A stretch of DNA of 64,000 nucleotides from Phormidesmis sp. Lineage in GTDB: Bacteria > Cyanobacteriota > Cyanobacteriia > Leptolyngbyales > Leptolyngbyaceae. How positions within the stretch are numbered: the first letter of the stretch is position 1; every line of letters starts with the position of its first letter. The DNA lies in assembly GCA_965248535.1 (NCBI GenBank), contig CBDFJR010000002.1, positions 1,600,001-1,664,000 on the forward strand, given 5' to 3'. This document shows positions 40,387 to 42,060 of the stretch, piece after piece. The translations under genes and the position numbers were made by a program. Below the pieces are notes generated by a model. The model searched no databases. It was not told where the DNA came from and was given only the letters and a program-made list of their open reading frames with translations.

Positions 40387-40719
40387 TTAGGTTGTTGCCC
40401 CAAATGCGGCTGAGTCATCGAAGATCTCAAACACGCGGTCTAGTTGAGTTAATTCAAAAATAATCCGAATCGAAGCAGACATAGAGCACAGGCTAAACCG
40501 CTTGTTTTGCTTTTGAGCCAGACTCAGCGTAGAAACCAGCACCATCAGGCCAGCACTGTCTAAAGATTCGACATCGCGCAGGTCTACCATCAGAGCCGAG
40601 GTTTGCTCTGATGTCACTGCGATCGCTAGCTGAGTTTGGAGCGCCGACGCATTGGCTGCATTGACATATCCTTGGGGACAAATGACGATGGTTTGAGGAC
40701 GAACGAGCACGCTCTGCAT
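40387..40719 (-). CDS. STAS-domain anti-sigma-factor antagonist
   Basis: VDLRDVESLDSAGL, IFELTQLDRVFEI. Confidence 0.92.
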   Translation of the reverse strand: MQSVLVRPQTIVICPQGYVNAANASALQTQLAIAVTSEQTSALMVDLRDVESLDSAGLMVLVSTLSLAQKQNKRFSLCSMSASIRIIFELTQLDRVFEIFDDSAAFGATT

Positions 40720-40878
40720 TATCTGAATCCCTTGGTTTCTAAATTAAAGAACTTGATGCCGACGCTCTGACAATAACCGCACATCGATCGCAGCGCATCC
40801 CTCAACTACATCGTTTCGCGAAATCTTTATTAGATAAACCCTATTGTTTAAACTTTTCAGTAAGCTCAGTCAGATTAA

Positions 40879-40894
40879 TGTATAAACCCATACA
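40879..40894. promoter_or_regulatory. NtcA binding site in the divergent STAS / omegaRNA-small gene region
   Basis: TGTA-TAAACCCA-TACA, a perfect TGTA-N8-TACA; no canonically spaced -10 box found. Confidence 0.55.
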
Positions 40895-41030
40895 AAATCG
40901 CAGAACTAACTCAACACCGAGACTACCCTAGAAACTTGGTGACTTAAATCACCTTAAATCTACCTGTTAGATCACTTTAGAAGTGAACCAACAGATAGAC
41001 AATCTTAGTCACGGAGTCGTCACAACTTTT

Positions 41031-41272
41031 GTCACTGACCCCGCACTAAAGTGACGGGGATTGGGTAGTCAGACTCAAGTTAAATCAAAGACCAGGGCAT
41101 TCGAGCAAACCGTTAGGGCAGACTTCCGATACTTACTTCGTTCGGATTCACTCTCAGCCCTCTCATTCAGGGCATTGGGTTGAGCGCTGACTGCGCCAAG
41201 ACGGGTTTCCCGTCCTAGGCAAGTGAGCAAGATAACCAAGACATCTTACGGTTTGTGCCCGAAAGGACTTCG
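41031..41272 (+). ncRNA. omegaRNA (HEARO-like) scaffold; the guide would be the ~16-20 nt immediately upstream
   Basis: Multiple stems visible, and sequence blocks resemble recalled cyanobacterial RRXRR (IscB/IsrB)-associated RNAs; 3' end approximate. Confidence 0.7.
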
Positions 41273-41406
41273 ACGAGTTTGCTGGATCTCGGATTGGTCA
41301 GCGTCTAAAATCCAGTCCCCATTAGGGGTAGGCGACGCAAGCCGCCAGTGCGTTTTTCCTCTGCGATTTGAAGAGACATCGTTTCTAAACGTATTAGGAG
41401 TTTCTG
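41031..41406 (+). mobile_element. Non-autonomous IS200/IS605 (IscB/IsrB-type) element consisting only of an omegaRNA/HEARO-like scaffold
   Basis: Starts GTCACTGA followed by the end hairpin CCCCGCAC-TAAA-GTGACGGGG; TCCGA..TCGGA hairpin; long-range pairing GGGCA/CAAACCGT with ACGGTTTG/TGCCC; CCAAGACATC and CGAAAGGACTT blocks; TTCCTC..TGAAG..GTTTC right-end-like block ending at ATGA; no IscB or TnpA ORF. Confidence 0.75.
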
Positions 41407-41601
41407 ATGAAAACTAGTGAGATCATTCGTCAATTGGTGGGAAAAGCACTTTACTTTAAGTGCCTGACCCCTGATATCGAGAACGAAATCAATTATGAAC
41501 TGACCCGGCAAGGACACATTTCTGACGTAGATTATGAAGCGCTTGAGCTTCTGATGGCTGAGATGGATGCAGGTCGAATTCGGCTAGTGCCCAGTTCTTA
41601 G
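41407..41601 (+). CDS. Small conserved-type cyanobacterial hypothetical protein (64 aa)
   Basis: AGGAG RBS 6 nt upstream; IRQLV.KAL...LTP..E..I...DYEALELLM....GRI pattern of a small cyanobacterial family. Confidence 0.8.
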   Translation: MKTSEIIRQLVGKALYFKCLTPDIENEINYELTRQGHISDVDYEALELLMAEMDAGRIRLVPSS

Positions 41602-41619
41602 GGTCTAAACCTGAGAAAT

Positions 41620-42060
41620 CTATAAACCGTGCTCCTCCCTTGACGATCGCGTTTTATTTCCACTGTTAGAAAAAGCATCAGGGTGACATTGGCAGAGTTG
41701 ATGAATGAACTCGCGAAGCTGGCGGTGAGCCGCTATTGCTTGAGGAGTCGAGCTAGTAAGTTCATCTAGACCATAGAGAGACGACAGCACAGGGATAGCT
41801 TCAACATCCAAAGCGGGACGAAAGAGAACGATCGGTAACAATAAGTCTGACCCTTGCCGTAAATCATGCCAGTCGGGTGTTGACTGCGATGAATCTATCA
41901 CCAAAACTAGAGGACGGGCCCAGCATAAGCGTCGAGCCTCCACAATTTGCACGACTTCAGCATAGAGGTGAGTTGCGTCAAGCTCAAGACAGACAATCTG
42001 TGAAGGCTGAAACTGAACGCTCCAGGCTTTTGCCGCTTGAGGGTGTGAATCCAGATCCAT
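41620..42060 (-). CDS. Hypothetical protein (cyanobacterial)
   Basis: FQPSQIVCLE...LYAEVVQIV..R.LCWARPL...DLRQGSDLLLP..LFRPALD.E; coherent 146-aa ORF. Confidence 0.75.
   Translation of the reverse strand: MDLDSHPQAAKAWSVQFQPSQIVCLELDATHLYAEVVQIVEARRLCWARPLVLVIDSSQSTPDWHDLRQGSDLLLPIVLFRPALDVEAIPVLSSLYGLDELTSSTPQAIAAHRQLREFIHQLCQCHPDAFSNSGNKTRSSREEHGL

Follow-up and report, generated by a model that had tools for sequence, protein, structure and literature searches.

The 376-base block between a minus-strand STAS-domain gene and a 64-amino-acid ORF starting at position 41407 of the window, the 64,000-nucleotide stretch of Phormidesmis sp. DNA analysed here, is an ORF-less IS200/IS605 element (PATE) derived from an ISC1/IsrB transposon and inserted at an N|ATGA target. 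This assignment follows from exact empty sites in related genomes and from an end-to-end match to a model of IsrB-linked omegaRNAs. Taken together with signs of wear across the copy, the element is probably an ISC1/IsrB-derived mini-element that is now decaying.

The ends were mapped by comparison of the host genome (G000; 5.03 Mb in five contigs, 99.76% complete) with its relatives. When 41 genomes were searched at the DNA level, four of the same genus proved to hold an ortholog of the host gene, with the match starting only at its ATG. At all four syntenic loci (L005, L006, L007 and L018) the upstream flank runs directly into ATGAAAACT, and alignment with the window flanks shows the flank joined to ATGAAA with no target duplication. 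These empty sites define the insertion point and thereby both boundaries. Since the flank is joined directly to the ATG at 4/4 empty orthologs, the element comprises 41031-41406 and sits exactly before the host start codon, as the preliminary description had delimited it. The ATGA at 41407 provides the NTGA motif of the empty site, 3' of the guide-matching DNA. The host gene is left intact by the insertion at its start codon. It is conserved in the four relatives; its product matches no Pfam or NCBIfam entry and no known family, and shows a weak correspondence (0.91) to cyanobacterial Atlas clusters. In public sequencing runs one contig represents the empty allele. A contig of run X2 that shows 43 differences within 41239-41568 spans the junction of element and gene. 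The insertion is thus probably present in a diverged strain too, although at 85% likeness other organisms can contribute. No exact excision joint was seen in this strain's contigs from three runs, which are uninformative on rare events because contigs drop rare variants.

The class of the RNA was established with a model, R1, which was built from 12 IsrB-linked omegaRNAs only, with helices placed by hand and with both the ORF-less RNAs and the window element left out. In the R1 alignment 88% of cells pair and two-sided changes occur in 46 of 66 pairs, which was equalled by 0 of 500 shuffles and by none of the slid controls. R1 matches 41031-41291 over positions 1-211 of its 211 with 96.5 bits (E 6.5e-27), while the next best of 11 matches in the window reaches 7.3 bits. 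Because R1 was trained without the element, this score demonstrates that the block is not a chance structure despite its modest folding energy (z -1.95; 3/100 shuffles fold as well). A search for relatives in 401 genomes gave matches in 23. Where a relative has a gene immediately after the RNA, the encoded protein has about 350-370 amino acids with an RRXRR domain and no HNH; the L035 protein has DtIsrB (8DMB) as its best PDB match (E 1.8e-45), compared to 4.6e-12 for the best IscB. No isrB ORF (PLMP, RRXRR, RuvC, no HNH) directly follows the RNA in the element or elsewhere in the host genome, and no IsrB locus was confirmed in viral contigs.

IscB-type and IsrB-type RNAs separate in both directions. 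On six IscB loci R1 gives 22.5 bits at most, while Rfam HEARO (RF02033) scores 119-162 bits on 6/6 IscB-type RNAs, 45-50 bits on four of five IsrB-linked RNAs with no match at E<=0.01 to the fifth, and 34-43 bits on three ORF-less RNAs. In the window HEARO, which models IscB-linked RNAs, aligns with its first domain (S1/SL1, the transposon right end) over 41031-41141, at 16 bits (E 0.97) against a cut-off of 83. The HEARO-like label given earlier thus has to be replaced: the RNA is of the IsrB type and not of the HEARO/IscB type. At the gathering threshold Rfam has no match in the whole window, and a HEARO scan of G000 found none, as was also the case for the control genomes. The features are collected in Table 1.

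Table 1. Coordinates of the element, its RNA parts and the adjoining host sequences in the window.
Feature	Position	Strand	Remarks
Would-be guide, in the host leader outside the element	41011..41030	+	Position inferred from Meers et al. (10.1101/2023.03.14.532601)
Whole non-autonomous element (PATE), GTCA...TCTG	41031..41406	+	5' of ATGA, without target duplication
IsrB-type omegaRNA scaffold	41031..41291	+	End-to-end R1 match
SL1, right-end hairpin	41039..41059	+	Intact, 8/8 pairs; TnpA recognition inferred
SL2	41061..41078	+	6/6 pairs read from the sequence; loop 41067-41072 is one half of the adaptor pseudoknot
S2/S3 long-range stem	41095..41260	+	41095-41113 with 41248-41260; 12/13 pairs kept
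SL4	41125..41146	+	Loop 41134-41138 pairs with 41263-41267 (nexus pseudoknot), 4/5 pairs, one A.G mismatch
SL5	41157..41173	+	Loop pairs 5/6 with the SL2 loop (adaptor pseudoknot), central C.C mismatch
SL6, enlarged by about 52 bases by a nested repeat	41178..41237	+	54-nt insertion relative to R1
3' module specific to the ORF-less family	41282..41328	+	Extended SL7 (41282-41315) and SL8 (41317-41328)
Left end, IS605 type, read on the minus strand	41331..41406	+	Inner hairpin degraded
Host gene, conserved 64-aa cyanobacterial protein	41407..41601	+	Its ATGA is the target motif

Every motif named in the preliminary description lies where it had been placed: GTCA at 41031, the hairpin at 41039-41059, TCCGA (41125) with TCGGA (41142), GCCCT (41157) with AGGGC (41169), GACGGG (41200) with CCCGTC (41209), the long stem, CTGGAT (41282) with ATCCAG (41310), CCCC (41317) with GGGG (41325), and the GCAA-loop hairpin at 41331-41346, which contains one A.C mismatch. 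The proposal of a protein-less OMEGA-type IS200/IS605 element with its right end inside the omegaRNA is supported. Its description as non-coding holds with respect to conserved genes, while two short frames of chance size (54 amino acids on the minus strand, 64 on the plus strand) do overlap the block.

The order of helices, S1, SL1, SL2, S2/S3, S4, SL4, SL5, SL6 and SL7/8, and the positions of both pseudoknots correspond to the DtIsrB omegaRNA (Hirano et al. 2022, PMC9581776; 8DMB), as does the NTGA-type adjacent motif; the helix names were transferred from the text of that paper and not from a structural alignment. Unlike the DtIsrB omegaRNA as described there, the window element has no cis-encoded protein, carries one mismatch in each pseudoknot and has an SL7 that is not followed by an isrB start codon. 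The R1 alignment misregisters SL2 (2/6 pairs). SL7 of the window contains a compensatory A-U pair in its outer stem and has lost the conserved TTAT loop. The left end matches its profile with 22.1 bits (E 4e-4), while the fold of its inner hairpin departs from that seen in intact elements. It closes with AGGAG (41396-41400), six bases before the ATG. The same left-end type is found in the intact IsrB elements L035, L039 and L138 and in TnpB elements of G000.

According to Kapitonov et al. 2016 (PMC4810608), ISC1-1_MA, an IsrB transposon of Microcystis aeruginosa, starts with GTCA and enters N|ATGA targets with no duplication. The window element shares with ISC1 and ISC1-1_MA the GTCA 5' terminus, the position 5' of ATGA as seen from the empty orthologs, the lack of a duplication, subterminal hairpins, of which the right-end one is intact, and ends common to TnpB-only IS605B elements. 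It differs from the ISC1 transposons described there in lacking an isrB ORF, in its size (376 bp versus more than 1.3 kb), in its nested small repeat and in its degraded left-end hairpin. With the PATEs of Geobacillus stearothermophilus (Meers et al., 10.1101/2023.03.14.532601) and the standalone IscB omegaRNAs cited in PMC9581776 it has in common that it is a protein-less IS200/IS605 element which keeps an omegaRNA and would need TnpA and a nuclease in trans. However, the G. stearothermophilus PATEs are described as TnpB-type and the standalone RNAs as IscB-type, whereas the window element is IsrB-type and resides in a host without the nuclease.

SL6 contains a nested insert, presumably a small dispersed repeat, with six related copies in G000 at E<=0.04 and more in loci of genomes G002 and G004; in L022 and L144 this position of SL6 is occupied by different inserts. 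In the nested repeat, two bases of the loop at 41187-41192 differ from the listed relatives and make it a perfect complement of the SL2 loop. A complement of this kind arises in shuffled inserts with a chance of about 3% for 5 nt and about 1% for 6 nt, and this is a single case. Judged from base complementarity, the nested loop (41188-41192) might rescue the adaptor pseudoknot, the SL5 partner of which is mismatched.

We compared the wear of the window copy with that of the other RNAs in a set of 67 aligned R1 hits, in which it ranks 64th by score. While 29/33 pairs of its core helices are kept, it is the only one of the 67 with a nexus pseudoknot run below five and the only one missing a TTAT-like SL7 loop. 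S1 retains 4/6 pairs, the adaptor pseudoknot has a run of 3 (or 5 if one mismatch is allowed), and a run X2 variant at 41137 breaks one further nexus pair. The breaks in the pseudoknots, S1, the SL7 loop and the left-end hairpin point to a decaying relic. Breaks lie at positions needed for nicking in DtIsrB, where Hirano et al. (PMC9581776) altered 4-nt pseudoknot blocks rather than single mismatches. The window RNA sits on a long branch (0.45). Given this branch and the kept core helices, part of the apparent wear may be subfamily divergence, some of the breaks being features of an unsampled subfamily. The IsrB-linked RNA of L170 scores below the window RNA (87.5 bits), and an adaptor-pseudoknot run of only 3, by this crude measure, also occurs in three IsrB-linked RNAs. 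Loose ends at window 41029 and 41063 in runs X1 and X2 belong to a further element in these samples. It agrees with the window copy in nearly all of the first 33 bases and in the SL2 loop, but has an intact S1 strand and a different flank, and is possibly a closer and less worn relative.

The preliminary description had further suggested that the RNA could load an IscB or IsrB encoded in trans. In G000 there are no RRXRR matches, tblastn with five IsrB proteins gives a best E of 0.35, and IscB queries align with HNH-size stretches only (E at best 7e-7). A repeat with the L035 query again found nothing in G000, while the positive control G030 gave E 1.3e-183. Trans loading of the window RNA is unsupported in this host, the absence of IsrB being read from one assembly, 99.76% complete in five contigs. 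For transposition the situation is different in that 11 Y1 TnpA matches are present in G000, five of them with 112-134 bits; judged by these matches, a Y1 TnpA would be available in trans as a candidate mobiliser. The genome also contains TnpB genes, and several TnpB elements with similar left ends abut ATGA. Sibling copies were not found in G000: the R1 scan (150 of 583 candidates scored) has the window element as its single match, and the DNA matches are short ones to the nested repeat and left-end remnants. Of the relatives that had been expected beside isrB in this or related genomes, the host thus holds none, while related RNAs do lie directly upstream of isrB in other cyanobacteria.

Related ORF-less RNAs were collected in two ways. 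The 3'-tail pattern identified 31 loci in 15 GTDB genomes and a further 15 metagenome loci, and no isrB follows the RNA among those with sequence in view. A pattern-free R1 scan of 150 genomes, with 15 candidates scored per genome, gave matches in 13 genomes, at 33 places. At 17 of these an RRXRR gene follows immediately, as judged from coordinates for 16 and from the sequence for one at a contig end. The other 16 are not placed in this way, namely eight in G030, four in G056, three in G176 and the one in G000. The extended 3' stem is present in 41/41 ORF-less RNAs (39 exact, two variants) and in 0/26 IsrB-linked RNAs, from which the window element also differs by this extra stem; most of the ORF-less rows were found via the tail pattern itself, but the four G056 copies were found independently and have the stem as well. 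The stem covaries, with 97% of cells paired and two-sided changes in five of nine pairs among 32 sequences, which was reached in 0/500 shuffles. In the tree the ORF-less cores are interleaved with IsrB-linked cores, at least seven label changes being forced by starred branches. A single clade of ORF-less cores was rejected (p-AU 1e-5), in a test of 191 columns with several long branches that was run after the tree had been seen. That unrelated cores carry a common tail suggests that ORF-less and IsrB elements have recombined.

The position relative to start codons was also compared across the family. Using a left-end anchor that does not require ATGA, and with six loci having no left end in view, ATGA lies within 34 nt of the left end in 50 of 52 distinct elements, at distances specific to the end type. 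Half of these (25/50) abut the start of a frame of at least 100 codons, compared to 19% of the non-disruptive ATGA sites in G000 by crude ORF calls. The excess corresponds to p 8e-7, or 0.002 with a baseline of 30%, values which are overstated because the baseline was taken from a different genome and in two pairs the site or gene is shared. The 64-amino-acid gene of the window is not among the 25 long frames. Pfam matches were obtained for 20/23 such frames checked, including ATP synthase delta, L19, S1, Ycf4 and D-Ala-D-Ala ligase. We also considered whether the tail holds an open frame, stop-free or coupled to the gene, and make no such claim: 25/52 tails lack stops in one frame versus 5.8 expected from shuffles, but the tails have a common ancestry, near-copies inflate the count and the frame relative to the ATG varies. 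Meers et al. (10.1101/2023.03.14.532601) note that IscB omegaRNAs need transcription from outside and that PATEs often keep omegaRNAs for use in trans. Landing at start codons would satisfy this need for outside transcription.

Starting from the observed ends, target, RNA class, absence of a partner match and family features, we propose the following course of transposition, expression, homing and decay. A Y1 TnpA acting in trans would have pasted the element 5' of ATGA, as known for this family, where it landed exactly at the start codon with no duplication and the gene intact. The promoter of the host gene would transcribe the leader, the element and the gene together, and the last 20 nt of the leader would serve as the omegaRNA guide. 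The only target of this would-be guide is the element's own empty site; each of its 12- to 20-mers has a single occurrence in G000, and all other NTGA-adjacent sites there have five mismatches or more. Where present, an IsrB supplied in trans would nick the empty site, so that the element could be restored after excision. As G000 has no IsrB match, this homing step cannot run here, and a copy deprived of nicking and restoration would accumulate breaks. Most likely the element persists as a passive 376-nt 5' leader, the last bases of which offer a Shine-Dalgarno motif to the host gene.

This Shine-Dalgarno motif raises the alternative that the element has been domesticated as a cis-regulatory leader, kept for setting transcription or translation of the 64-amino-acid gene and not as a guide. 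It lies between a conserved upstream region and the ATG, presents AGGAG at a spacing of 6 nt where the empty alleles have no such motif, and is probably shared with a diverged strain. However, it is missing from 4/4 same-genus orthologous loci, an AGGAG-type end occurs in 20/52 tails and is thus general to this left-end class and not a local adaptation, and the substitutions look like scattered loss, not new conserved structure. We regard domestication as unlikely, though it is the most credible of the alternatives. The tolerance of relatives before essential genes such as those listed above could also be explained if the element removed itself from RNA by splicing in the manner of an IStron. 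This seems extremely improbable, as Rfam detects no intron family and no group I intron core, omegaRNA, tail and left end together explain the whole length of the element, and 0/43 insertions interrupt a frame open for at least 60 codons on both sides (best 58); self-splicing was rejected on these grounds.

The remaining alternative is a live omegaRNA which, after processing, is loaded into an IsrB or IscB whose gene lies elsewhere in the cell. The full-length scaffold with most of its core pairs kept is consistent with it, and PMC9581776 cites standalone omegaRNAs that function with IscB. In addition, an RRXRR match is present in 13/14 genomes of the ORF-less family versus 19/150 of a class sample, where the 14 come from the 15 with tail-pattern loci (that of L103 left out), are mostly related and IS-rich, and IscB and IsrB are not separated. 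Against this, IsrB is found in one of four genomes with ORF-less copies (G030) in the unbiased 150-genome sample, and G176, which is 100% complete in two contigs, holds three ORF-less copies of 180-189 bits with no IsrB match. With counts as mixed as 13/14 and 1/4, co-occurrence with IsrB is not proof of use in trans. For the window copy itself, the missing partner in G000, the different class of IscB-type RNAs and the breaks in the pseudoknots and SL7 loop render a live RNA improbable, somewhat more so than a domesticated leader. The reading as a decaying, ORF-less descendant of an ISC1/IsrB transposon is therefore retained.

Protein-less omegaRNA elements and ATGA-targeting ISC1/IsrB transposons are already known, and taken by itself the window copy is an ordinary, if neat, relic. 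Of more weight is the family, which comprises about 50 natural IsrB-type guide cassettes. G030 holds eight of them next to one intact isrB, and in G176, G056 and G000 they occur with no isrB found. The family makes it possible to test whether a nickase can drive homing in trans and how an omegaRNA stays intact when its protein is missing, and it shows that a mobile element is tolerated at housekeeping start codons; the window copy is a natural loss-of-partner control. As Rfam misses these RNAs at its cut-off, they are probably unannotated. The literature searched, including PMC13565253 and PMC9755519, contains no IsrB-type ORF-less family with its own 3' module and a start-codon bias, although the original omegaRNA/HEARO descriptions may list IsrB-type standalone RNAs. 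We tentatively suggest, as a minority reading, that the family could be a dedicated class of cyanobacterial guide-only IsrB parasites and not scattered deletion products. Its own covarying 3' module would replace the isrB start, and by swapping omegaRNA cores with resident IsrB elements it would stay compatible with the local nickase. Targeting of ATGA would bring it to start codons, with a borrowed host promoter, the leader as guide and the gene intact. The window copy would then be an end state after loss of the nickase, possibly with the nested repeat taking over the adaptor pseudoknot.

Several further loci may be useful in this context. G030 is the best system for a trans test: beside one intact isrB element, the RNA of which is 78% identical, it contains eight ORF-less copies, seven of them full (95-100% identical) and one truncated (loci L004, L011, L013, L016, L020, L084, L093, L095 and L159 in all). 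Near-intact ORF-less omegaRNAs of 180-194 bits, with their structure retained, are present in several copies in G176 (L162, L172, L179) and G056 (L160, L171, L178, L183), where no IsrB was found. L105 and L131 share a start codon (ycf4), as do L122 and L146 (AIG2-like gene), each pair coming from two different genomes, and reflect either inherited or repeated insertion; L105 is far more decayed than L131 (71.7 versus 184 bits). At L189 (G004:C79:8257 onward) an RNA that looks IscB-type precedes non-coding DNA and a copy of the small repeat found in SL6 of the window element, with no intact ORF start. In L038 two IsrB-type elements stand back to back, one with an internally deleted isrB of 167 amino acids, an intermediate on the way to ORF loss.

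In G000 itself a left-end remnant of the same type (L019, C2:1298980-1299012) shows AGGAG and then ATGAA where a short membrane-protein-like ORF begins, and thus represents another, older start-codon fossil. A second PATE family, apparently recent, consists of no fewer than five nearly identical ORF-less elements (C2:982647, 1792921 and 1965550; C5:1479032 and 1703071). They measure about 400 bp, have a TnpB-type 3' end and all contain the small repeat that is nested in SL6 of the window element. Scans of 40700-41700 for sigma-70 promoters and terminators returned 0 and 0, with about one expected by chance. About 80 nt upstream of the element a GTGA-N6-TCAC palindrome (40938-40953) is conserved in all five aligned genomes, with one substitution in L018. 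We take it to resemble a CRP-family site, and it may control the 64-amino-acid gene or the divergent STAS gene.
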